From Alphaproteobacteria bacterium (lineage in GTDB: Bacteria; Pseudomonadota; Alphaproteobacteria; Rs-D84): a stretch of DNA of 64,000 bases. The stretch spans positions 880-64,879 of the forward strand of contig JAFVOS010000008.1 in NCBI GenBank assembly GCA_017505705.1. Direction: 5' to 3'. Position 1 is the stretch's first letter. Every line of letters begins with the position of its first letter. Positions 7,642 to 57,101 of the stretch are shown in pieces. Below the pieces are notes generated by a model. The model was given only the letters and a program-made list of their open reading frames with translations, did not search any database and had not been told where the DNA came from. Both the position numbers and the translations under genes were made by a program.

Positions 7642-7887
7642 ATGTCAGAAAGACAAACGGTTAAAATCGAACAAGATTTTATGGACGATCCAATTAATGT
7701 AAAACTGTCTGGCTTGCGGGCGTGGGTTGTTCCAATACTGATTGCATCAATTGCGCTCAGTACATGTGCAACTGAAATGAATACACGCAATAATACGGCG
7801 GTGCAGCAACAACAACTGGAAATCGCTAAAAAACAATATCAGTTGGATTCTGCCCGGTTTGAGTATATGAAAACGCACCAGAAATAA
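7642..7887 (+). CDS. Hypothetical small membrane protein.
   Basis: 81-aa ORF with an RBS (aggggaaaca) and one TM segment. A terminator follows. Confidence 0.35.
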   Translation: MSERQTVKIEQDFMDDPINVKLSGLRAWVVPILIASIALSTCATEMNTRNNTAVQQQQLEIAKKQYQLDSARFEYMKTHQK

Positions 7888-7913
7888 AAATCCCTCAATT
7901 GGGGGATTTTTAA
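7886..7913 (+). terminator. Rho-independent terminator.
   Basis: Hairpin aaaaatccctcaattgggggattttt followed by a T-run. Confidence 0.65.
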
Positions 7914-12594: not shown

Positions 12595-13287
12595 ATGCAC
12601 GGACAAGATAAGTATTTTGAACAACAAAAATCGTTTTTTAACAGCCGAATAGTGGGCAATTCTCGGCATTTGTCTGTGTATATGAAAATATTCCAGATTT
12701 CACATCGTAATATCAAGAATGTACTGCATAACAAGAAATTGTTATTAATTGGCGGTGGGGGGTCCCAGATTCAACGTGCACTTGATTTTGCAAAGATTAA
12801 TTGTGATGTCACAAATGTTGACCCTTACATTAATGATTCTCGTTCCGCCCGAACAGTTATAAATTGCGACTTTAATGATACCTGCTTTGAAAACGAATTT
12901 GATGAGGTCTGGGCATTATATTCATTACCCCTGTATTCACCAGACTGGCAACATGCCATCAGATTTTACAGACGTGCGGCAGTTGCGCTGAAGCCTGGCG
13001 GAACGTTGCGCATTGGCGGTCATCCAAAATGGGTAAATGGCGCATTATTAGCCCCTGTACACTTTATACGTGACAGTATGAATTTTATAGTTCTCGATAT
13101 GAAGATTGAAGAGACTTTTTCGTTACCATATACACTGCCACCGCATCATAAAATTAGTCTAGATTTTACACTGCATCCAGAATCTCGTCATTGGGAACAG
13201 TGGACTGCACCAAAAATTCCTGCGATTAAACAGGCATTGAACGAACATATTAAACAATTAGAGTATAAAAAAGGATACATAAGATGA
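12595..13287 (+). CDS. Class I SAM-dependent methyltransferase-like protein.
   Basis: Motif I LLLIGGGGS, an acidic residue after beta2 (NVD) and an LKPGGTLRIG motif. The start may instead be the internal ATG near 12682. Confidence 0.5.
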   Translation: MHGQDKYFEQQKSFFNSRIVGNSRHLSVYMKIFQISHRNIKNVLHNKKLLLIGGGGSQIQRALDFAKINCDVTNVDPYINDSRSARTVINCDFNDTCFENEFDEVWALYSLPLYSPDWQHAIRFYRRAAVALKPGGTLRIGGHPKWVNGALLAPVHFIRDSMNFIVLDMKIEETFSLPYTLPPHHKISLDFTLHPESRHWEQWTAPKIPAIKQALNEHIKQLEYKKGYIR

Positions 13288-13739
13288 ACACAGAACTGGC
13301 ACCAATTTTTAAACTGCGTGAATTGTGTTTGGCGGTGGTCAACCCGAAATTTTATGCCAAGAACGCAGATTTGATTCATCGTGCATCATTGGCCGCCCAG
13401 GATTATATATTTTCTGGGGCATCACGTGAATATCAAACATATATGTATGGAAATTTTCAGTCTTTGCCTGGATACATTGCGGTTTATCAGAAATACGATT
13501 TGACTGGCAAAGTCAATCCAAATTTAGTTATGGATTTAACATGGGGATTTAAAACAGATGCCATCAATGGGATTATTGATGGACGTGGCAACATAAAAAA
13601 TCGTGTCACTGTATTTAAATCTCGTGTAATGGGCACATACCATAACACTGATCTGTCTGGCACACCATCCAGTGTATTTAAACTGTATCCAGAAAAAGTC
13701 GAAAAATTATTAGACGCAGCCCAGCAAAAAACAAAATAA
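13284..13739 (+). CDS. Hypothetical protein, one of a tandem paralogue pair (copy 1).
   Basis: 151-aa ORF. Its N-terminal 60 aa are clearly similar to the downstream ORF: IFxxRxxxLxxxNxKFYxxxxxxIxxxSLAAQDxxFSG. Confidence 0.45.
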   Translation: MNTELAPIFKLRELCLAVVNPKFYAKNADLIHRASLAAQDYIFSGASREYQTYMYGNFQSLPGYIAVYQKYDLTGKVNPNLVMDLTWGFKTDAINGIIDGRGNIKNRVTVFKSRVMGTYHNTDLSGTPSSVFKLYPEKVEKLLDAAQQKTK

Positions 13740-13751
13740 CAAGGATTCCCA

Positions 13752-14231
13752 ATGCATACACAGCTGGCAACAATTTTTGAGATGAGAAACGCATTATTAA
13801 AACGCTGTAACTTAAAGTTTTACAGACAGCATGAACAGGTTATAAAAAATTCGTCTTTGGCTGCCCAGGATTTTTATTTTTCCGGCGATTTAGATGATTA
13901 TGATATGTGCAGCCTATATGACTTGGCGCATGATTCATTGTATGCCAGTTTACACGCTGCATACAATGTTCCATACCAATCATCTGATACCCGCTGTGTA
14001 AATTCTGGTCTGGTTCTAGATTTGGCACGTGCATTGCGTGATGATATAAACAGTGGTATTTTGGGAAAAACAGGCGAAGTAATGATGCCAGAACGCTTAA
14101 AAGAATCCCAGGTTCTGCACACCTATCATAATTCCGAAGATTCTGGTATTCCGGTAAATTTTTTAAAGCACATGACACCGAACGCAGTTAAGGTGTTTTT
14201 ATGGCAATACGGACAAGGCAAAAAACGCTAA
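13752..14231 (+). CDS. Hypothetical protein, one of a tandem paralogue pair (copy 2).
   Basis: 159-aa ORF paralogous to 13284..13739. A terminator follows. Confidence 0.45.
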   Translation: MHTQLATIFEMRNALLKRCNLKFYRQHEQVIKNSSLAAQDFYFSGDLDDYDMCSLYDLAHDSLYASLHAAYNVPYQSSDTRCVNSGLVLDLARALRDDINSGILGKTGEVMMPERLKESQVLHTYHNSEDSGIPVNFLKHMTPNAVKVFLWQYGQGKKR

Positions 14232-14233
14232 TA

Positions 14234-14262
14234 CAACCCGCCAAATGGCGGGATTTATTTTG
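14234..14262 (+). terminator. Rho-independent terminator.
   Basis: Hairpin cccgccaaatggcggg followed by a T-run. Confidence 0.65.
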
Positions 14263-14269
14263 TTGAAAA

Positions 14270-14427
14270 AACTTGCAATTTGTCAAAAAAGCCTGTATAA
14301 TCACGACGATTTTGTGGGTGGGCACAAAATCAATCCGATTAACCCCACAAGACCCCCAGAGAGATTTTAGGTGGCCTGCCACCCGAAGCCTCGACGAAGG
14401 GTGGCAAACTTTTGATGAAATTTTCTT
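14270..14427 (+). promoter_or_regulatory. rpsA promoter (TTGCAA, 17 nt spacer, TATAAT) plus a structured ~120 nt leader.
   Basis: A consensus-like -35/-10 pair at about 14270-14301. The leader contains several GC hairpins (ttttgtgggtgggcacaaaa; ggtggcctgccacc) and lacks a strong SD, as is typical of autoregulated S1 mRNA. Confidence 0.45.
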
Positions 14428-16116
14428 ATGAAAGATTTATCCAAAGACTTATTTAATCCACTGTCCGGCGAAGATTTTGTCCAGATGTTCGATGCGAACT
14501 ATGGCGCACAAGAAACTTTGCAGGGTTATGCAACCAAGGGTACTGTTAAAGACATTCGTGGTGATTTTGCCATGGTTGATGTTGGCCTGAAATCCGAAGG
14601 TCGTGTACCATTAAAAGAATTCGGTGCATCTGTACCATCTGTTGGTGATATCATTGACGTTTTTGTTGAACGCTATGAATCACGTGAAGGTACCGCTGTT
14701 CTGTCTTATTCCAAGGCACGTGCATAAAAAGCATGGAAAGAATTGGAAAAGACTGTTGCCGAAGGCATCGACCCAGAAGGTACAATTATCGACGTTGTTC
14801 GTGGTGGATTCACTGTGGACATCAATGGCGTATTTGCATTTATGCCATCATCCCAGGTTGATCACAAACCAATTCGTGATGCAAAATCACTGATTGGATT
14901 GAAAGACAAATTCCGTGTATTAAAGATGGATGCATTGCGTACAAACGCAATCGTATCACGTCGTGCAATTCAATCTGATACAATCGCAGCAGCACAGAAA
15001 GAAGCAATGAAAAACATTTCATTGGGTGCTGTCGTTGAAGGTACTGTCAAGAACATCACAGATTACGGTGTGTTCGTTGATTTGGGCGGTATTGATGGAT
15101 TGCTGCACGTCACAGACCTGTCGTGGAAGCGTGTAAATCACCCACGTGAATTGGTTCATGTTGGCGAAAAGATTACTGTCAAAGTTATCCAATTCGACCC
15201 AGAATCACATCGTATTTCATTGGGCATGAAACAACTGGAAGAAGATCCATGGGAAACAGCGTCACGTGCATTCAACGTTGGCGATACCGTTTCTGGCAAG
15301 GTGTCATCTTTGACAGATTATGGTGCATTCATTGATCTGGGCAACAATATCGAAGGCCTGGTTCACATGTCTGAATTGTCATGGACAAACAAAAATATCC
15401 ACCCAAGCAAAGTTTTGCAAAACGGCCAGGATATTGACGTTGTTGTTTTGGGTATCGATCAAGACAAACGCCGCATTTCATTGGGTTACAAACAATTGCA
15501 ACCAAATCCATGGAAGCAGTTTGCTGAAAACCACAATGTTGGCGATGTTGTGACTGGTCCAATCAAGAACACAACAGAATTCGGTTTGTTCGTTGCATTG
15601 ACACCTGAATTGGACGGTATGGTTCACATTTCCGACCTGTCTTGGAACAAATTGGACGAAGAAGAATTAAAGAAATTCGTTCGTGGCCAAGAAGTGACAG
15701 CAAAGATTTTGGACATCAATCCAGAAAAAGAACGCGTCACATTGGGTATCAAACAGTTGACAGAAAGCGCAGAAAACAACGCTGTATCTTTAAAGAAAGG
15801 CGCAGTTGTATGCGGTACTGTTTCCGAAATCACACCTGATGAATTGGTTTTGACATTGGCTGGCGATGTACGTGGTGTTATCCGTCGTACAGACCTGTCA
15901 CGTGAAAAATCAGAACAAGACACATCTAAATTTAACGTTGGCGATTCCGTCGAAGCATCTGTTGTTTCGATTGAAGACAACACCGTTAAATTGTCTGTTC
16001 GTGCATTGCAGGTGACATTGGAAAAGCAGGCGGTCAAAGAATTCTCAAACGAAGCCGATTCTGGTTCCGTTTTGGGCGATATCTTGGGCGCTGCAATCGA
16101 AAACAGCAAAAAATAA
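14428..16116 (+). CDS. rpsA: 30S ribosomal protein S1, interrupted by an in-frame TAA at 14725-14727. The two ORFs (14428..14727 and 14743..16116) are in the same frame.
   Basis: The translation aligns collinearly with S1 (domains 1-6, repeated S1 motifs) across the stop: ...LSYSKARA*KAWKELEK... matches ...SREKAKR(H/E)EAWxxLEK... Confidence 0.85.
14725..14727 (+). other. In-frame TAA stop codon inside rpsA.
   Basis: Seen directly in the sequence: gca cgt gca TAA aaa gca tgg. The flanking ORFs share frame 1. Confidence 0.9.
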
Positions 16117-16135
16117 TTTGTGAATTTGCAAATCA

Positions 16136-16170
16136 TTTCACCGTCCGCTTTGCGGGCGGTGTTTTTTTGT
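16136..16170 (+). terminator. Rho-independent terminator after rpsA.
   Basis: Hairpin caccgtccgctttgcgggcggtg followed by T7. Confidence 0.7.
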
Positions 16171-16185
16171 GGTATAATTATGGGT

Positions 16186-16755
16186 ATGAAGAATAAAAAT
16201 AAAATGATTGTTATGATGGGTGGGCCCGGTACGGGCAAGGGGACTTTTTCCCGTCTGCTGCGCCAAATCCATCCCGAATATACACATATTGAAACGGGGG
16301 CAATGCTGCGTGCACAACCAGATGGCTCGCCCATTCGCATTGCGATTGCAGGCGGTAATTTAATCCCCGATGAAATGGTTTGTGATTTGGTTGCCGAAAC
16401 ATTGTCATGTGCCCCAGGTGACCTAATCCTGGACGGTTTTCCACGCACATTGGTTCAGGCAAAATGGCTGGTACGCAATTATGCGAATAAATACGATATT
16501 CATGTTGTTTTCCTGAATGTATCCGACGAAATAATGGAACGTCGCATATCAAAACGTAAAAATGAAGGCTCAACACGGCGTGATGATGCAGACGCAAAAA
16601 CGGTGCATCATCGCATCGAAACGTTTCACACAACGACAATGCCGGCGATAAAATGGTTGGCCGGGGTCGGGGATATAACATTTTCTGACGTTGATTCCAG
16701 CGAACAAGAATCTGTGAATTTTGCCAGAATTTTATCTGCCCTGGGGTGGAATTAA
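16186..16755 (+). CDS. adk: Adenylate kinase (short form).
   Basis: P-loop GGPGTGKGT, the NMP-binding ETGAMLRA and the DGFPRT motif. A TATAAT lies just upstream. The start was chosen downstream of the rpsA terminator. Confidence 0.75.
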   Translation: MKNKNKMIVMMGGPGTGKGTFSRLLRQIHPEYTHIETGAMLRAQPDGSPIRIAIAGGNLIPDEMVCDLVAETLSCAPGDLILDGFPRTLVQAKWLVRNYANKYDIHVVFLNVSDEIMERRISKRKNEGSTRRDDADAKTVHHRIETFHTTTMPAIKWLAGVGDITFSDVDSSEQESVNFARILSALGWN

Positions 16756-16787
16756 AAAAAATCCCACATTTGTGGGGTTTTTAAAAT
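16756..16787. terminator. Bidirectional rho-independent terminator.
   Basis: Hairpin aaaatcccacatttgtggggtttt lying between convergent adk and tatD. Confidence 0.65.
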
Positions 16788-17539
16788 TGAATTTTTGGAT
16801 ACAGGCGTTTTGTGTTTTCTTCCAATATACGTTCCAGTTCTGGCAATTCTACACCCTTGATATCCGCCAAGACACGTGCAGTTTCAATAACCATTGCGGG
16901 TTCACATGTCTTGCCACGATATGGTACCGGGGCACAATATGGACTGTCGGTTTCAATTACAATTCGGTCAATTGGGATTTTTGAAAAAGTCTCGCGAATA
17001 TCGCCCGAATTTTTAAATGTCAGTATTCCGCTGGTTGAAAACATAAACCCACGATCCAGCATTTTCTTTGCTAAATCCCAAGAACTGGTATAGCAATGCA
17101 TAACCCCACATACGTCTCCGTTTAAAATCTGGGCGGTGTCGTTTTCTGCTTCTCGGGTATGGATTGCAACAGGCAGATTATACTTTTTTGCAATTGCCAG
17201 TTGTTTTTCAAACAGTTCAATTTGTTGCATACGTGTGTCGGCATTATAGTGGTAATCCAAACCGATTTCTCCGATTCCGACGACACGTGGATTTTGCAGT
17301 ACATCATCGGTTAAAAAATCAGCCGGATTCGCATCTGTATATTCAGGATGAATACCAATTGTGCAGAATATATTGCTGTATTCTTCTGCGATTTTCAAGG
17401 CGCCTGGAATATCTGCCGGGTCTGCGGTTGGGCAAATCATAACACCAACCCCAGATGCCATAGCGTTTTCAATTGCGTGCTTGGCGTCACCGTCACCACA
17501 ATGACGATCTGTTAAATGACAGTGTGTATCTATAAACAT
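16781..17539 (-). CDS. tatD: TatD family metal-dependent hydrolase or DNase.
   Basis: The MFIDTHCHL start and conserved His/Asp/Glu positions of the TatD fold. Confidence 0.85.
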   Translation of the reverse strand: MFIDTHCHLTDRHCGDGDAKHAIENAMASGVGVMICPTADPADIPGALKIAEEYSNIFCTIGIHPEYTDANPADFLTDDVLQNPRVVGIGEIGLDYHYNADTRMQQIELFEKQLAIAKKYNLPVAIHTREAENDTAQILNGDVCGVMHCYTSSWDLAKKMLDRGFMFSTSGILTFKNSGDIRETFSKIPIDRIVIETDSPYCAPVPYRGKTCEPAMVIETARVLADIKGVELPELERILEENTKRLYPKIQF

Positions 17540-18435
17540 TTTTTTACTTCATTTATTATTTTAAATATTGCTATTTCTGGTTCCAGGTACAATCTGTTTA
17601 TATCTGCAATTGCATGTGTTGCAGCCGGATACATGTCTGCCAAACCAAAATGCGCAATTGCATCCAGCAGAATAGGATGCAATTCTGGGGCAGCCGCAAT
17701 TTTCTTTGCAATTACCATCATGTCGCCCGCATTACTGCGTGGATTGGTTAGTGTTTGAATTAATTCGTCGTAAACTTCATCCCCACCAGATGTTTTCAAA
17801 TTTGCAATTTTTCCAAAGCTGCCATTTGCCAGTTTTAATGTTTCTGTACTTACATCTTCTTCTGGCAAAAATTTTACACACAACTCACGCAACTGTGAAA
17901 TTGTCAGTGGGCGCATTTTTTCCACACGTGCACGTGAACGTACGGTTGGCAAAACACTTGACAATTGATGCACAACCAACAGAAACAGCGTCTGTGCTGG
18001 CGGTTCTTCCAGCAATTTCAGGATTGCATTTGATGCCGCTGTATTTAATTCGTCGACCGAGTCGATTAAAATCACACGCCACCCACCCGACATAGACGAC
18101 ATCTGCATTTTATCAATCATGGCCCGAACGGTATACACAGAAATAACCTTGCCATCGGGTTTCAAGTTGCCATTTTTATCCAGGTTGCGTGCCAAATCTA
18201 CAATAAAGAAATCGCCAACATTGCCATATACTGTGCGGGCAATTTTGTATGCCAGTGTCGATTTTCCAATGCCACGTGGCCCTGTCAGCATCCATACCGG
18301 ATGAATAGGATGGCTGTCACGATTATTCCATGCGTCCATAAATGTGCGCCACGTGTCAGCGTGCCCAACCAGAACATCGTTATCCATCGGATGCGGAAAT
18401 TTATATTCACAAGCCTTTTTCTTTCGTGGTGCCAT
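17530..18435 (-). CDS. holB: DNA polymerase III delta-prime subunit.
   Basis: The AAA+ clamp-loader signature LTGPRGIGKSTLAYKIARTV and an SRxRV-like sensor motif. It overlaps tatD by 10 nt. Confidence 0.8.
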   Translation of the reverse strand: MAPRKKKACEYKFPHPMDNDVLVGHADTWRTFMDAWNNRDSHPIHPVWMLTGPRGIGKSTLAYKIARTVYGNVGDFFIVDLARNLDKNGNLKPDGKVISVYTVRAMIDKMQMSSMSGGWRVILIDSVDELNTAASNAILKLLEEPPAQTLFLLVVHQLSSVLPTVRSRARVEKMRPLTISQLRELCVKFLPEEDVSTETLKLANGSFGKIANLKTSGGDEVYDELIQTLTNPRSNAGDMMVIAKKIAAAPELHPILLDAIAHFGLADMYPAATHAIADINRLYLEPEIAIFKIINEVKKCL

Positions 18436-18440
18436 TGTTT

Positions 18441-19619
18441 TTATATCCCAAATATTACCCTGATATTTTTTATAATACGTCTAATAAACTGAATCTTTTT
18501 TACCCGTTCATTTGCCACCAATGGTGCACGTGCAATAATTTTACCATCCTGTTCAGCAATCAGTTCGCCAATATTGTCACCCACTGCGACTGGTGCGGCC
18601 ACTGGTTCATTAAATCTGGCCAGTACACGCACGCCCTTTAATCCTTTCTCTTTGCCCAGTGTGACCGCAAACGGTTGTGTCACAGTTGCGTCAACATAAT
18701 CTGTCTTTCCATACCATACAGGCACCTTGGTCACGATGTCACCGGGGCGGAAAAACACCTTGCCCACAGTCGTACTGAAACCATGATTCATCAGTTTTTT
18801 CATTTCGCCTGCCAGTGCATCATGTCCCTTGCCGTTAAAACCATTGATAACACCAACTAAACGTCGTCCACCAATCTTGGCACTGGCAACCATGCCATAT
18901 CCGCCACCATTGGTGTGACCTGTTTTTAGTCCATCCGCCCCCGGCATGATAAACAGCAGTTTGTTATAGTTTACCGTATGTGTTCGACCCCATTCACGAC
19001 ACCAATCTGTTTTGTGTTCTTTAAATTCAAAACGTTTTGTTGCAAACATCGGGTACAGTTCGGGGTAATCTCCAATCAAATGTACGGCCAGTGTGGCCAA
19101 TTCTCGGCTGGTCATTAAATTATTAGGATTTGGCAATCCGCTGGCATTCCCGAACGTAGATTGGTTCATGCCAATGCTGCGGGCTTTCTTTTCCATTAAT
19201 TGTGTGAATGCAGCCTCGTTTCCTGCCAGTTTTTCTGCCACTACCACAGATGCGTCGCCCCCCGATAATACAATAAGGCCCAATATCAAATCACGAACAC
19301 TTATTGTCTGTCCCGCAACCAGACAAATTTTACTGGCTGGGTACCATTCTGGGCGATTATAGTCAGCATTTTCCCCAACTGGGAAACGTGTATCCATTGT
19401 GATATTGCCAGCCTTTAATTCGTCGAACAGCACCGCCAATGTCATCAGTTTTATCATTGATGACGGTGGCATCAGTGTGTCAGCATTTTTTGCGACAATT
19501 TCTGCCCCAGAATCATAATCAATTAAAAAAGCAGACTTTGCCTTGGTCTTAAATTCATCTGCGGCATTCGCCACACCACACGCCAACAACAAAAATAGTG
19601 TAAATAATTTCTTTTTCAT
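18441..19619 (-). CDS. D-alanyl-D-alanine carboxypeptidase (PBP5/6 family, peptidase S11).
   Basis: Signal peptide MKKKLFTLFLLLACGVANA, plus the SxxK (SMIKLMT), SGGD and KTG motifs. The start is trimmed to the signal-peptide ATG. Confidence 0.8.
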   Translation of the reverse strand: MKKKLFTLFLLLACGVANAADEFKTKAKSAFLIDYDSGAEIVAKNADTLMPPSSMIKLMTLAVLFDELKAGNITMDTRFPVGENADYNRPEWYPASKICLVAGQTISVRDLILGLIVLSGGDASVVVAEKLAGNEAAFTQLMEKKARSIGMNQSTFGNASGLPNPNNLMTSRELATLAVHLIGDYPELYPMFATKRFEFKEHKTDWCREWGRTHTVNYNKLLFIMPGADGLKTGHTNGGGYGMVASAKIGGRRLVGVINGFNGKGHDALAGEMKKLMNHGFSTTVGKVFFRPGDIVTKVPVWYGKTDYVDATVTQPFAVTLGKEKGLKGVRVLARFNEPVAAPVAVGDNIGELIAEQDGKIIARAPLVANERVKKIQFIRRIIKNIRVIFGI

Positions 19620-19663
19620 GGTTCTGATAATAGCAATATCAAACGCCATTTCAAATAGAATTT

Positions 19664-20890
19664 TTATTCTATTTTTCCAACGAATGTATCGCCCACAATA
19701 TCGGTCAAAACAACGTTGCAAATTGTGCGTGACGGAACAGATGTATTATCAATTTTTACAGAAATATCGTGTGGACAACGTGCTATATTGTTTTCTTCAA
19801 CCAATACTTGAACAGATTGCCGCAATTGTGAATGCATAAATTTGGCACGATTTTCATTCGCTGCATCATTTATTATTTTGACACGTTGCTTGGAAATTGC
19901 ACGATTAATCTGGTTTGGCATGCTTGCGGCAACTGTATCAGGGCGGGGTGAGTATGGGAACGCATGAATCTTGATTGGTCTTAATTCATGAACCAGCGCC
20001 AATGTCTCGTTAAACAGTTCTTCTGTTTCCCCTGGGAACCCACAGATTATATCCCAGCTAAACGTGATAATGTCGCCTGCCATTTGCGCCCATTTGCGCA
20101 CCATGTCTGCGGTATGTCGGCGTCGCATGGATTTCAGTATCGTGTCAGAGCCCGATTGCATTGAAAAATGCATGTGTGGCATCATACGTGTATCAGATTT
20201 AATCAGGTCTATGATTTTTCCAACCTCTGGCACCGCCGGATCCATCGATGACAGGCGCAACCGCCGTATCCCCGGCACATCTGCTAATAATTTTTTACAT
20301 AAATCAGAAATTAAAAAGGGCCGCCCGTCGTACACACGTGCATATGATGCAATATCCACCCCGGTTAACACTATTTCGCCAAACCCAGCATCCACCGCCG
20401 CATGCACGTCGGCTAAGATTTCATCATAATCAAAAGAAACAGCCCGCCCACGCAACAATCGTGTCACACAGTATGTACAGTCATGATTGCATCCATTTTG
20501 GATTTGTACGAATTTTTTAGACAGCTTTTCATCTGAATCCTTGAATTTTTCAATTTTTGGATTTTGTATATGACATGGTGCTTTTGCCAGTGCATCTATA
20601 TATGCGTCGATATTTCGTTTTTGAAAATTATCAATAACCAAAACATTTGGTATATCACAGAACAATTCCTGATTACGGGTTGCCGCACATCCAGTCACAA
20701 ATATTTCTACATTTGGGTTTTCTCGTGCAATGCGTCGAACGGCCTGTCCTGATTGTCGTTCTGCTTCAGCTGTGACGGCGCAAGTATTAACGACAATTGC
20801 CGTATCTATAACGGTTTTCAGCATGTTTTGAATCTTTTCAGATTCCAGTGTGTTCAGTCGACACCCAAAAGATAAAGTCTTAATGCTCAT
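19664..20890 (-). CDS. Radical-SAM methylthiotransferase of the MiaB/RimO/MtaB family, probably MtaB-like.
   Basis: N-terminal MTTase cysteines (FGCRLN...NTCAVT), the radical-SAM motif CNHDCTYC and a C-terminal TRAM-like region. It is 408 aa long. Confidence 0.75.
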   Translation of the reverse strand: MSIKTLSFGCRLNTLESEKIQNMLKTVIDTAIVVNTCAVTAEAERQSGQAVRRIARENPNVEIFVTGCAATRNQELFCDIPNVLVIDNFQKRNIDAYIDALAKAPCHIQNPKIEKFKDSDEKLSKKFVQIQNGCNHDCTYCVTRLLRGRAVSFDYDEILADVHAAVDAGFGEIVLTGVDIASYARVYDGRPFLISDLCKKLLADVPGIRRLRLSSMDPAVPEVGKIIDLIKSDTRMMPHMHFSMQSGSDTILKSMRRRHTADMVRKWAQMAGDIITFSWDIICGFPGETEELFNETLALVHELRPIKIHAFPYSPRPDTVAASMPNQINRAISKQRVKIINDAANENRAKFMHSQLRQSVQVLVEENNIARCPHDISVKIDNTSVPSRTICNVVLTDIVGDTFVGKIE

Positions 20891-20971
20891 TTTTTTATTT
20901 TTCTGCTTGCTTTTTTACTATCTATAAGGCATTATAACCAGGCTAAAAATGATTTCAACAAAGGATTTAAA

Positions 20972-21364
20972 ATGGCCCGTACAACAAATTCAGATACATT
21001 ACCATATGTAGAAAGCCGTTATGAACTGGGGATGTTGGCATCTCAACGTGTTCGTGATTTGAACGGTGGTGCGGAACCGGTTGTGGATAAGGAAAATGAC
21101 AAATTGACGGTTGTTGCGCTGCGTGAAATTGCCAGTGGCAAATTGGATGTTGGGGCTGTTCGTCACGAATTTGTTCAGTCGTATAAGGAAGCACCTGTTG
21201 CAACAGACGGCGAAGAATCTTTGGAAATTGGCACCGAAGACCCATTGTTGCGTGAAATTGATGCGGAATTGGAAAATGCGTTGTCTGATGATGCGCCTGT
21301 TGCGGATGCATCAGATGTTATGGACGAAGTGATGACCGAAGACGTCGTTGCAGACGAAGAATAA
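20972..21364 (+). CDS. rpoZ: RNA polymerase omega subunit with an acidic C-terminal extension.
   Basis: MARTTNSDTLPYVESRYELGMLASQRVRDL matches the RpoZ N-terminal signature. Confidence 0.85.
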   Translation: MARTTNSDTLPYVESRYELGMLASQRVRDLNGGAEPVVDKENDKLTVVALREIASGKLDVGAVRHEFVQSYKEAPVATDGEESLEIGTEDPLLREIDAELENALSDDAPVADASDVMDEVMTEDVVADEE

Positions 21365-21371
21365 CAGACCC

Positions 21372-21462
21372 GGAGTCGTCGCATAGTTGGTCTAGTGCGC
21401 TACATTGGAAATGTAGTATACTCGCAAGGGTATCAAGGGTTCGAATCCCTTCGACTCCGCCA
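21372..21462 (+). tRNA. tRNA-Ser(GGA), type II, with CCA encoded.
   Basis: Manual fold: acceptor GGAGTCG/CGACTCC, a 3-bp D stem, anticodon stem ctaca/tgtag with loop ttGGAaa, a long variable arm, T arm aaggg-ttcgaat-ccctt and discriminator G+CCA. Confidence 0.85.
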
Positions 21463-21474
21463 GAAATAATCAAA
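21454..21474. repeat. Left copy of the 21-nt direct repeat (tRNA-Ser 3' end plus 12 nt). Candidate left attachment-site junction of the island.
   Basis: actccgccagaaataatcaaa is identical at 49794-49814. Confidence 0.7.
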
Positions 21475-21508
21475 ACCCCGACAAAATCTGTCGGGGCTTT
21501 GTTTTTAT
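21474..21508 (+). terminator. Rho-independent terminator after tRNA-Ser.
   Basis: Hairpin ccccgacaaaatctgtcgggg followed by a T-run. Confidence 0.6.
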
Positions 21509-21685
21509 GCGGATTACCGCCACTTTCCCACCACAAGGTTACCAGTATGTACACCGAAGTCCCCAAATACACTAAATTCCACCCCGTTTACATACAACCC
21601 CAAAAATCCCGATGCCAGTATCGTATATGTCTTGAAAATATGCCAATGTTTCTTATATTTGTCACATGAATATAAAGGATTTAAA

Positions 21686-22162
21686 ATGAATGTATTAAAT
21701 TGTGTGTTTGCCGGAATAAGTGCTTTTTCTGCCGCTGCGATTGGGATCGCTGCATTTTTTATTTCTAAGGCTCAGTTAAAAATCGATAAACATAAAAAAG
21801 ACGATTTTTTATATGATAAGCGTTTCCAAGTGTACGATGATATAAAAGATATAATACTAAGTGCAAGCTCCGAATTGTTTGCTTTAAATAATAAAGAAAT
21901 TGATGGAATCGATGCAAAATTTGTGCGTCCTTTATATAATAAAGTTAGTTCGTTAATAAGTGATGCAGATTTGTTGTTTAAAGATGAAAATATACGCAGT
22001 TATATTTGCGAGCTACGTTTAGATGTAGCACGCTTATTCGGTGTCAACAATATACAAATTGTTGATGACGATCAGAAGTGCGAAATTATTAAGAAGTGGG
22101 ATGAACAGATGTCGTCTGGTTATATGATAGACTTGTTCGGTAAGTATTTGAAACTAATATAG
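21686..22162 (+). CDS. Hypothetical membrane protein (island cargo).
   Basis: The ORF has a good RBS (aaaggatttaaaATG), an N-terminal TM helix and a low GC content. Confidence 0.4.
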   Translation: MNVLNCVFAGISAFSAAAIGIAAFFISKAQLKIDKHKKDDFLYDKRFQVYDDIKDIILSASSELFALNNKEIDGIDAKFVRPLYNKVSSLISDADLLFKDENIRSYICELRLDVARLFGVNNIQIVDDDQKCEIIKKWDEQMSSGYMIDLFGKYLKLI

Positions 22163-23746
22163 TTGATTCTCTCTTGCAATCTGGAACAAATCATTAACAC
22201 TTATGTGTGTTTCCCCGGACAGGATTTCATTAACCTTGTCCGGATTCATATATGCGATATCCAGATGCCGGTAAAACTGACGTGGCGATGTGTGTTCTTC
22301 TTGGAATATGCGGTGTATGTCCCCATCCCGTTCATACAATTCTCTATATTTCCACGCGGTGGCAAAGGCCTTTAATATCAGGTGGTTATTTACTGTAATG
22401 CTCAGTGTGCCGTTACTTCCATCGCTAAATCTGGTGTTGGCATATCGGCGCAGCACAATGGATCGTACAATCGTTACCGTATCGTCATTAACACTGTATT
22501 CCATGGGATTTGCATTTTGATTGATATGATATTCAGATAAAAATGCATTGAATAACAGTGGATTGGTATTGATATGAAATACCAGTTTTTCATGTGAATA
22601 AATAGCTCGTTCAATCATAACGCGAACCAATTCCCGCCTTTGCAGGTATGACAGGTCTTCCCACACAATCCGTTTCAATGCCAATACCACATTTTGGGAC
22701 AGGGTACTCATATCACTGTTCAGAAATTCGGCTACAACAGACATGGCTATTTCATCCACCTGTGCCGCCGGCAGATAGAATCCCCGTGTTGCATAGTAAT
22801 ATGGCCCAACCTTATCCTTGGGGCATGCGTGCTGATTGGCAAAACGTACACCTTTGTCGTTATACAGCTTTCGTGACAGCAGGTTGGGTGACCGCCTGCG
22901 ATGACTGGTATTATTAGAATTCGCAACCAGTGCATCCTGTACCCGTTGAAATACTTCCGGCGATACGATCTCCTGATGCTCGCCACGGGCAACATTATTG
23001 CTGACTTTGTTTTCAATCATCCCGATATAGATTTTATCTCGTAAAATCTTGTGCATACTGTTCGGTGTAATGGGCTTGCCACCACGCAGCACCCCTTTGG
23101 CGGTTGTCCATGCTTTGGCACGAATCCCATTGCTTTCGGCCCATTGGGTTAAATCATTCACAGATTGCAGTTCCAAGTATTTTTCAAACAACTGTCGCAC
23201 TTGCTCTGCTTCGGCTGGATTTACAATCAGCTTCTTGTCCACGACATCATATCCCAACCGTGGCATGCCTCCCATCCATATGCCTTTGGCTTTACTGGCG
23301 CGTATTTTATCCCGTACTCGTTCGCTGGAAACTTCGCGTTCAAACTGGGCGAACGACAGCAACATATTCAGCGTCAATTTACCCATAGATGTACTGGTGT
23401 CAAACGATTGGGTTATGGACACAAAGTTCGCGTTATGCTTGTTGAAATATTGCATCATCTTATGAAAGTCCAATATGGAACGTGACAGTCGGTCAACCTT
23501 GTAAACCACCACGGTATTTACCAAACCACGTGCCATATCGTCCAACATTTGTTTCAGGGCAGGCCGTTCCATAGTCCCACCAGAAATCGCAGCATCACTG
23601 TAAGTTTTATAATATTGCCACCCATTGAATGATTGGGACGCAATATACGCTTTACAGGCCTCTTCTTGGTTTTGCAGGGAATTGAACTCCATATCAAGTC
23701 CATGCTCGGTTGACTTGCGTGTATAAATCGCACATTTAATTGTCAT
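22154..23746 (-). CDS. Large serine recombinase (resolvase/invertase family integrase).
   Basis: An N-terminal resolvase catalytic domain (AIYTRKST...GGTMERPALKQML...YKVDRLSRS), a recombinase domain and a long C-terminal region. It is 530 aa long. Confidence 0.85.
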   Translation of the reverse strand: MTIKCAIYTRKSTEHGLDMEFNSLQNQEEACKAYIASQSFNGWQYYKTYSDAAISGGTMERPALKQMLDDMARGLVNTVVVYKVDRLSRSILDFHKMMQYFNKHNANFVSITQSFDTSTSMGKLTLNMLLSFAQFEREVSSERVRDKIRASKAKGIWMGGMPRLGYDVVDKKLIVNPAEAEQVRQLFEKYLELQSVNDLTQWAESNGIRAKAWTTAKGVLRGGKPITPNSMHKILRDKIYIGMIENKVSNNVARGEHQEIVSPEVFQRVQDALVANSNNTSHRRRSPNLLSRKLYNDKGVRFANQHACPKDKVGPYYYATRGFYLPAAQVDEIAMSVVAEFLNSDMSTLSQNVVLALKRIVWEDLSYLQRRELVRVMIERAIYSHEKLVFHINTNPLLFNAFLSEYHINQNANPMEYSVNDDTVTIVRSIVLRRYANTRFSDGSNGTLSITVNNHLILKAFATAWKYRELYERDGDIHRIFQEEHTSPRQFYRHLDIAYMNPDKVNEILSGETHISVNDLFQIARENQLY

Positions 23747-49847: not shown

Positions 49848-49991
49848 AATCGGGGCTCGAACCCGATAAAGCCACGACAGTGGCGTGGGTTCGACAATGA
49901 GTAGGTTTTGCAAACATAGTGCAGCAAAACCGTCAGGAATGCCCCACAGCCCCGCCATCTGCGGGGCGAGGGAATACTTCGACTCCGCCAG
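49848..49991. other. Structured non-coding segment with tRNA-like fragments: a minus-strand T-arm-like tcgggttcgagccccga, and a plus-strand cttcgactccgccag copy of the tRNA-Ser 3' end.
   Basis: Seen directly in the sequence. No complete tRNA or tmRNA could be folded. Confidence 0.35.
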
Positions 49992-55911: not shown

Positions 55912-56983
55912 TTAACCACGTTGCAACAGACTTAACATAAAATCGTCTAAGTCCCCATCCAAGACTGCATCAGAATCTGTTTTTTCAACGCCTGTTCTGA
56001 CGTCTTTGACCAGCTGATATGGGTACAGTACGTAATTTCTGATTTGGCTGCCCCATTCAATTTTCTTTTGTGCAGCCAATGCGGCATTTTCCGCTTCGGC
56101 ACGCTTTTGCATTTCCAGTTCGTACAATTTACTGCGCAGCATTTTCATTGCCATTTCTCGGTTTTGAATTTGGCTGCGTTCATTTTGGCATGTGACGACT
56201 GTATTTGTTGGGATATGGGTGATACGAACAGCACTGTCTGTTTTGTTAACATGTTGACCGCCTGCGCCAGATGAACGATATGTGTCGATGCGTAAATCTT
56301 TGTCATTAATTTCTATTTCGATTGTATCATCGACGTCGGGCCAGACATCAACGGATGCAAAACTGGTTTGTCGCTTGCCGTTGGCGTTAAAAGGCGATAT
56401 TCGTACCAGTCTGTGAACCCCGATTTCATTTTTTAGCCAGCCATACACACGATCGCCTGATATGCGGTATGTGATATTTTTTATTCCGGCGGTGTCGCCT
56501 TCGTGTTCTTCGATAACTTCGGTCAAGAATCCATGGCGTTCGGCCCATCGTGCGTACATACGGGACAGCATCTGTGCCCAGTCTTGTGCCTCGGTTCCGC
56601 CTGCGCCGGCTTGGATAAACAAAAATGCGCCATTATTATCTGCTGGTTCCCGGAACAGGGTAATAAATTTTGCCTTGTGCGCCATGTGCTGCAGTTTTTC
56701 AATATCTGCAATAACATCTGGATCGTCTGGGGCAATTTCATATAATTCAACCAGGTTTTTATATTCTGATTCCAGGTGGTTCAATTCCGCCAACTGGCGT
56801 TCCAGTGCAGATTTTTTCTGTAATACAACACGTGCATTATCAGGATTGTTCCATAAATCAGGTTCGTTGACCTGGGTATTCAGGTCGTCAATTTGTGCCT
56901 GTATTTTTTCTGGGTCAAAGAAACCCCCTGACGGCAGCAATGTCGTCGGAAATTTGTGCAAAAACTTCATTAACCATAATCAT
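55912..56983 (-). CDS. prfB: Peptide chain release factor 2, requiring a programmed +1 frameshift at CTT TGA C (56914-56920).
   Basis: The frame-0 leader MIMVNEVFAQISDDIAAVRGFL is followed by an in-frame TGA. The +1 frame continues DPEKIQAQIDD... with SPF and GGQHVNKTDSAVRITH (GGQ) motifs. An AGGGGG SD-like element lies 3 nt upstream of CTT. Confidence 0.9.
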
Positions 56984-57101
56984 GTCTAAAATCATAGCAT
57001 TGTTTTTTGTTGAATCAACCACTTTTTAGGTGCCGAACACAAAACAATGTTTGCGTTTTTTTTGCTAATATGTTAAAATTTATTTAACGAGAGGGACCCT
57101 A

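Follow-up and report, generated by a model that had tools for sequence, protein, structure and literature searches.

The 64,000-base stretch of alphaproteobacterial DNA analysed here (the window) contains an rpsA gene, encoding ribosomal protein S1, with a TAA stop codon inside its reading frame. The locus raises the question of whether the stop is present in the cells and, if it is, whether S1 is produced as two polypeptides or by read-through of the UAA, or whether the stop entered the sequence record by error. A real and tolerated stop would call into question whether S1 has to be one chain anchored to the ribosome via domain 1, and would represent a rare case of a natural nonsense allele in a gene essential for translation. 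The comparisons described below suggest that the stop probably arose through an error in base calling, consensus choice or assembly, or through another alteration of the record.

Structure of the interrupted rpsA gene

The rpsA frame begins with ATG at position 14428 and ends with TAA at 16114-16116. The gene (14428-16116, plus strand) comprises 562 sense codons when codon 100 is counted. Codon 100 is TAA (14725-14727, plus strand) in the context GCA TAA AAA GCA TGG, and it was the single interruption when the frame was read end to end. The ORFs on either side of it (14428-14727, 99 aa; 14743-16116, 457 aa with a TTG start) lie in the same frame, and their translations are collinear with S1 across this one TAA, confirming what the original prediction had described. 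The first potential in-frame start codon past the stop is TTG at 14743 (codon 106), followed by GTG (14815, codon 130) and ATG (14842, codon 139).

Codons 1-99 (14428-14724, plus strand) encode the N-terminal segment and S1 domain 1 (Pfam S1 domain, residues 33-94). This part aligned to residues 3-91 of E. coli S1 and its protein sequence was identical to that of P0001, the intact S1 protein of the same strain. In E. coli, this part attaches to ribosomal protein S2. The rest of the gene, codons 101-562 plus the natural TAA (14728-16116, plus strand), encodes S1 domains 2-6, all intact (five Pfam S1 domains), again with 100% protein identity to P0001. The Pfam family PF00575 matched six stretches in P0001, compared with one stretch in the 99-aa piece and five in the 457-aa piece of the window. 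The joined product aligned collinearly with E. coli S1 (6h4n_y; E = 1.9e-150), with query residues 15-545 covering residues 3-540 of the chain, and the DNA of the gene matched the annotated E. coli rpsA. Judged by these similarities, the joined product is ribosomal protein bS1 of the six-domain proteobacterial type, and the original identification of the gene as rpsA holds. Codon 100 aligns with E. coli His92 and falls directly behind domain 1, in the linker leading to domain 2. The bS1 frame was uninterrupted in every relative examined, whereas that of the window was not.

The gene looks like its own transcription unit. A terminator-like hairpin (14237-14252) follows the preceding gene and precedes a weak promoter-like site (TTGCAA, 17 nt, TATAAT; 14273-14301, plus strand), which was found by a consensus scan in which such sites were no commoner in the window than in shuffled sequence. 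Downstream of the gene lies a strong intrinsic-terminator-like hairpin of 10 pairs, eight of them G-C, followed by a T run (16139-16171, with the hairpin extending to 16161; plus strand). Three genes without Pfam matches are located directly upstream of rpsA (12595-14231), a position kept in all close relatives. Two of them (13284-13739, 151 aa; 13752-14231, 159 aa) have similar N-termini and look like tandem paralogues.

As a chance check, all six frames were scanned for stops flanked by at least 80 stop-free codons on each side. The rpsA TAA was the sole case that could be placed inside one gene. The plus-strand cases checked individually (16114, 5159, 13737, 30543 and 44584) were borders of adjacent genes in the same frame. 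The rpsA stop is not a chance arrangement of ORFs.

Codon 100 in related genomes

The original prediction had proposed that a residue that is E or H in other S1 proteins was replaced through a single GAA to TAA change, and that rpsA be compared among related genomes. The comparison bore out the proposed change. Glu was found at position 100 in all eight close relatives read, and His at the corresponding position 92 of E. coli S1. A protein search detected more than 100 intact S1 relatives of 562-600 aa (96-100% identity). The exact 34-mer bearing the T was absent from both the GTDB species-representative genomes and the JGI metagenome contigs. When the variable base was replaced by N, the same 34-mer matched 49 genome loci and 10 metagenome loci, to which 11 loci obtained earlier were added. 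The base equivalent to 14725 was G in all 70 related loci (49 GTDB species representatives, 10 JGI metagenome contigs and 11 others), and the stop was shared by none of them. The rpsA genes of the pattern-matched loci showed 76-92% DNA identity to that of the window. These loci were mostly from metagenome-assembled genomes labelled Candidatus Enterousia, Alphaproteobacteria or Rickettsiales, originating from the guts of ruminants, horses and other animals. The uncultured order Rs-D84 includes Enterousia, whose genomes are reduced and for the most part smaller than 1 Mb (PMC12306168).

Further look-ups were made with exact protein sequences. The TatD protein encoded next to rpsA was found unchanged on five contigs; four of them cover codon 100, all with G, and the fifth ends before rpsA. 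In the gene-position collection, neither the 99-aa product, nor the 457-aa product, nor a serine recombinase variant of the window (E452V, described below) was on record.

The gene is under strong constraint. In comparisons with 11 relatives its dN/dS was 0.016-0.059; one of them (L077) gave 130.5 synonymous versus 9.5 non-synonymous differences, and an internal stop was present in none of the 11. Save for codon 100, the product was 100% identical to P0001, with no frameshift, second stop or other sign of decay. The change at codon 100 is a single private substitution in an otherwise intact, constrained gene. This is hard to reconcile with rpsA being a decaying pseudogene in a shrinking genome, an idea to which the reduced genomes of Enterousia (PMC12306168) lend some plausibility. 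A pseudogene would be scarcely conceivable given one lone lesion, the low dN/dS and the presence of an intact gene in the same strain elsewhere, and we rejected it on these grounds.

Comparison with other records of the same strain

The scaffold_679 of ENA assembly ERZ28653805 (66,339 bases) was rebuilt whole from five overlapping pieces. The window is the reverse complement of its positions 882-64881, with exactly four mismatches and no gaps. P0001 is encoded on this scaffold and on scaffold_1565 of ERZ28654085, which showed four and three mismatches to the window over 21,689 and 11,784 bases, respectively, again with no gaps. The intact rpsA of the same strain has the same gene order and flanks, and is identical to the gene of the window at 1687 of 1689 nucleotides. 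The two differences are at codon 100 (GAA in the intact gene, TAA in the window) and at codon 45 (GGC in the intact gene, GGT in the window).

The four substitutions, given as the change from scaffold_679 to the window, are C>T at 7895 (intergenic), C>T at 14562 (synonymous, Gly45 of rpsA, 163 bases upstream of the stop), G>T at 14725 (Glu100 to stop in rpsA) and T>A at 22392 (E452V in a minus-strand serine recombinase gene). The window alleles are private at all four sites, and the remaining contigs that span them (90-99.98% identity) always carry the other base, including C at 14562 in all 11 related contigs that cover it and G, as part of a GAA codon for Glu, at 14725; no carrier of any of the four alleles was found in the public data searched. 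Position 7895 is in the stem of a palindromic terminator-like hairpin (7886-7905; AAAAATCCCCCAATTGGGGGATTTTT in relatives), where the private C>T converts a G-C pair to a G-U pair and weakens the stem. The set looks unselected, with each class of change (intergenic, synonymous, missense and nonsense) represented once. A random substitution in the window would generate a stop with a probability of 0.038, and the occurrence of at least one stop among four substitutions (P = 0.14) is unremarkable.

Twelve independent contigs of the same strain were compared with scaffold_679; their sources were other BioSamples, a further ENA assembly and assemblies of four Logan runs. They showed 100.000% identity, with 0 differences over 103,231 bases summed, a result that carries a mild bias towards identity because each contig was fetched by an exact match to one protein. 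At the rate seen in the window (four per 64 kb), the Poisson probability of observing no difference in 103,231 bases is 0.0016. The window is therefore an outlier among the records of this strain.

The Enterousia strain was base-for-base identical across several BioSamples and across runs with widely separated accession numbers, and these runs may come from different studies. For a gut bacterium, such clonality across samples is unusual, unless they came from a common animal or herd.

An error or another change introduced into the record is, as judged from these sequence comparisons, the probable origin of the stop. The T at 14725 would be a one-base G-to-T change existing in this copy alone, and we infer that it is absent from the DNA of the cells. 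Two observations sit less comfortably with this explanation. First, no other broken gene was recognised among the stops of the six-frame scan, some of which were checked individually, and there were no signs of poor assembly in the window, which has no indels against scaffold_679 over 64 kb. Second, the two rpsA changes, 163 bases apart, would equally fit a real linked haplotype. The four private changes fall within 14.5 kb (P about 0.04), and the spacing of the two rpsA changes has a chance probability of about 0.03, both values being post hoc. Such clustering might stem from locally low coverage, from one aberrant fragment or from a real linked haplotype.

There is a minor but appreciable chance that the T is real, as a very recent nonsense mutation in a minority or dead-end sub-lineage that was assembled before being purged, with no rescue mechanism at work. 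In a variant of this scenario, the T would be present on some of the genome copies of a multi-copy cell. A private change in an undecayed gene is as compatible with a very young mutation as with an error, and the two linked rpsA changes could mark one real haplotype. Moreover, three of the four private changes run from G/C to A/T, which is the usual direction of bacterial mutation. The spectrum (G>T by oxidation, C>T by deamination) does not discriminate between error and mutation, because natural mutation bias gives the same directions. However, an allele that is lethal would not be expected to become the majority form in a population, and the same strain in other samples showed no variation at all. 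The original prediction regarded S1 as essential in Gram-negative bacteria, and PMC4288201 and PMC3296737 likewise describe it as essential for translation initiation in these organisms, which also weighs against a nonsense mutation without rescue. No second rpsA or S1-like gene was found within the 64-kb window, and a spare copy elsewhere would be unlikely since Enterousia genomes are reduced and mostly under 1 Mb (PMC12306168).

Read-through and recoding

For an authentic stop, the original prediction offered read-through, a split S1 or a base-call error. The last of these, extended to consensus errors, is the one favoured by the above comparisons, while the other two gained no support. Read-through by a suppressor tRNA or by sequence context, or reassignment of TAA to an amino acid, would be extremely improbable, and nothing positive was found in its favour. 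TAA terminates 42 of the 56 likely genes of the window, including rpsA itself. The most frequent stop context is TAA with a following A (19 of 56), consistent with the earlier description of the A after the rpsA stop as a strong termination context. The window encodes an RF2-type release factor (55912-56970) that carries the SPF and GGQ motifs, and RF2 reads UAA and UGA. No suppressor tRNA with the anticodon UUA was found in the 64-kb window, the tRNAs of which are Ser(GGA) and Arg(CCG). The stop was conserved in none of the 70 related loci, and the rpsA TAA is not accompanied by a stimulatory signal. Codon reassignment was rejected in view of the use of TAA as the main terminator and of the RF2 gene. 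Slippage during transcription of the AAAAA that follows the T was also considered and rejected, because slippage shifts the frame and cannot remove a stop, and because relatives carry the same AAAAA run.

The window contains another core translation gene with an in-frame stop. The RF2 gene (prfB), on the minus strand, has the +1 frameshift signal AGGGGG-TTT-CTT-TGA-C (56914-56931), which shows wide conservation among bacteria. The programmed frameshift of prfB resembles the rpsA case in that an in-frame stop occurs inside a core translation gene, but the prfB site has the classical arrangement of AGGGGG, 3 nt and CTT TGA C, whereas the rpsA TAA has neither signal nor conservation. The AGGGGG before the prfB TGA is Shine-Dalgarno-like. 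The short zero-frame prfB ORF (ATG ... GTC AGG GGG TTT CTT TGA C; 56914-56995, minus strand) ends at the in-frame TGA. Given the frameshift, the ATG of the 352-aa called ORF (55912-56970) is not the true N-terminus of the protein.

A nonsense codon in rpsA is not without precedent. Kitakawa and Isono are said to have described a conditional-lethal amber mutation in E. coli rpsA in 1982, and the mutant was reportedly viable only with a suppressor tRNA and served to show that S1 is essential. The window is like this mutant in having a nonsense codon in rpsA, but unlike it in that no suppressor tRNA was seen in the window.

A split S1

It is highly improbable that S1 is made in two pieces, namely a 99-aa domain-1 fragment and a product with domains 2-6 re-initiated at the TTG at 14743. 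This TTG is in frame, 5 codons (15 bases) past the stop, and follows GGAAAGAA, a weak Shine-Dalgarno-like stretch. In addition, the break would fall in the linker between domains 1 and 2, outside any fold. Against these features, the split is shared by no relative, all of which encode one protein of 562-600 aa. The TTG and the bases upstream of it are conserved coding sequence for W-K-E-L with no added signal, and are present in the eight relatives read too, some of them with WKDL. To our knowledge, no natural organism lives on an S1 that is split after domain 1.

Engineered fragments of E. coli S1, namely S1(1-106) and S1(87-557), were cut in approximately the same linker as the stop of the window (Byrgazov et al. 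2012; PMC3296737). According to this paper, residues 1-106 (domain 1) are necessary and sufficient for binding to S2 and the ribosome, and S1(1-106) is dominant-negative, displacing native S1 and inhibiting growth and the bulk translation of canonical mRNAs. S1(87-557), lacking domain 1, was tested in vivo and is stated there not to bind the ribosome. These fragments, however, were laboratory constructs expressed beside native S1 (PMC3296737), unlike the situation in the window. By analogy with these results, a cut at codon 100 would produce an anchor without RNA-binding domains and RNA-binding domains without an anchor, and both pieces would be expected to fail.

A variable stretch at tRNA-Ser(GGA)

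The serine recombinase gene with the private substitution at 22392 is located in a stretch bordered by direct repeats. The 15-base 3′ end of tRNA-Ser(GGA), CTTCGACTCCGCCAG, at 21449-21463 recurs at 49977-49991, roughly 28.5 kb away, and the relative L002 does not have the stretch between these repeats. The first part of this stretch encodes the serine recombinase, DUF2924, several DNA methylases, NERD, NUDIX and DUF6339 proteins, and a terminase-large-like gene. These are followed by a transketolase, a PLP decarboxylase, a carbamoyltransferase and a class I tRNA-synthetase gene (Pfam tRNA-synt_1b). The stretch has the appearance of an element integrated at a tRNA gene, or of a composite variable island there. 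A contig of the same strain (L012; ERZ28654271 scaffold_11892) is identical to the window from 14981 to 22378 and ends inside the recombinase gene, 14 bases before 22392. The position of this end may be a coincidence or a repeat-induced break.

Implications

The stop at codon 100 is most likely neither a lineage feature nor a new mechanism, being neither recoding nor a split gene. The value of the record, with its four substitutions unseen in other copies of the strain, is that of a quality flag. Automatic annotation of this record would wrongly turn rpsA into a pseudogene or two genes, and near-identical public contigs help to judge stops of this kind without reads. In the Candidatus Enterousia strain itself, codon 100 is most probably GAA (Glu100), and an ordinary full-length six-domain S1 would be made. 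It is very unlikely that the TAA truly exists in a thriving Enterousia clone that survives by a two-piece S1 or by reading through UAA. If it did, the clone would be a natural experiment, in which the covalent linkage between the anchor and the RNA-binding domains of S1 is dispensable in a reduced-genome gut bacterium.
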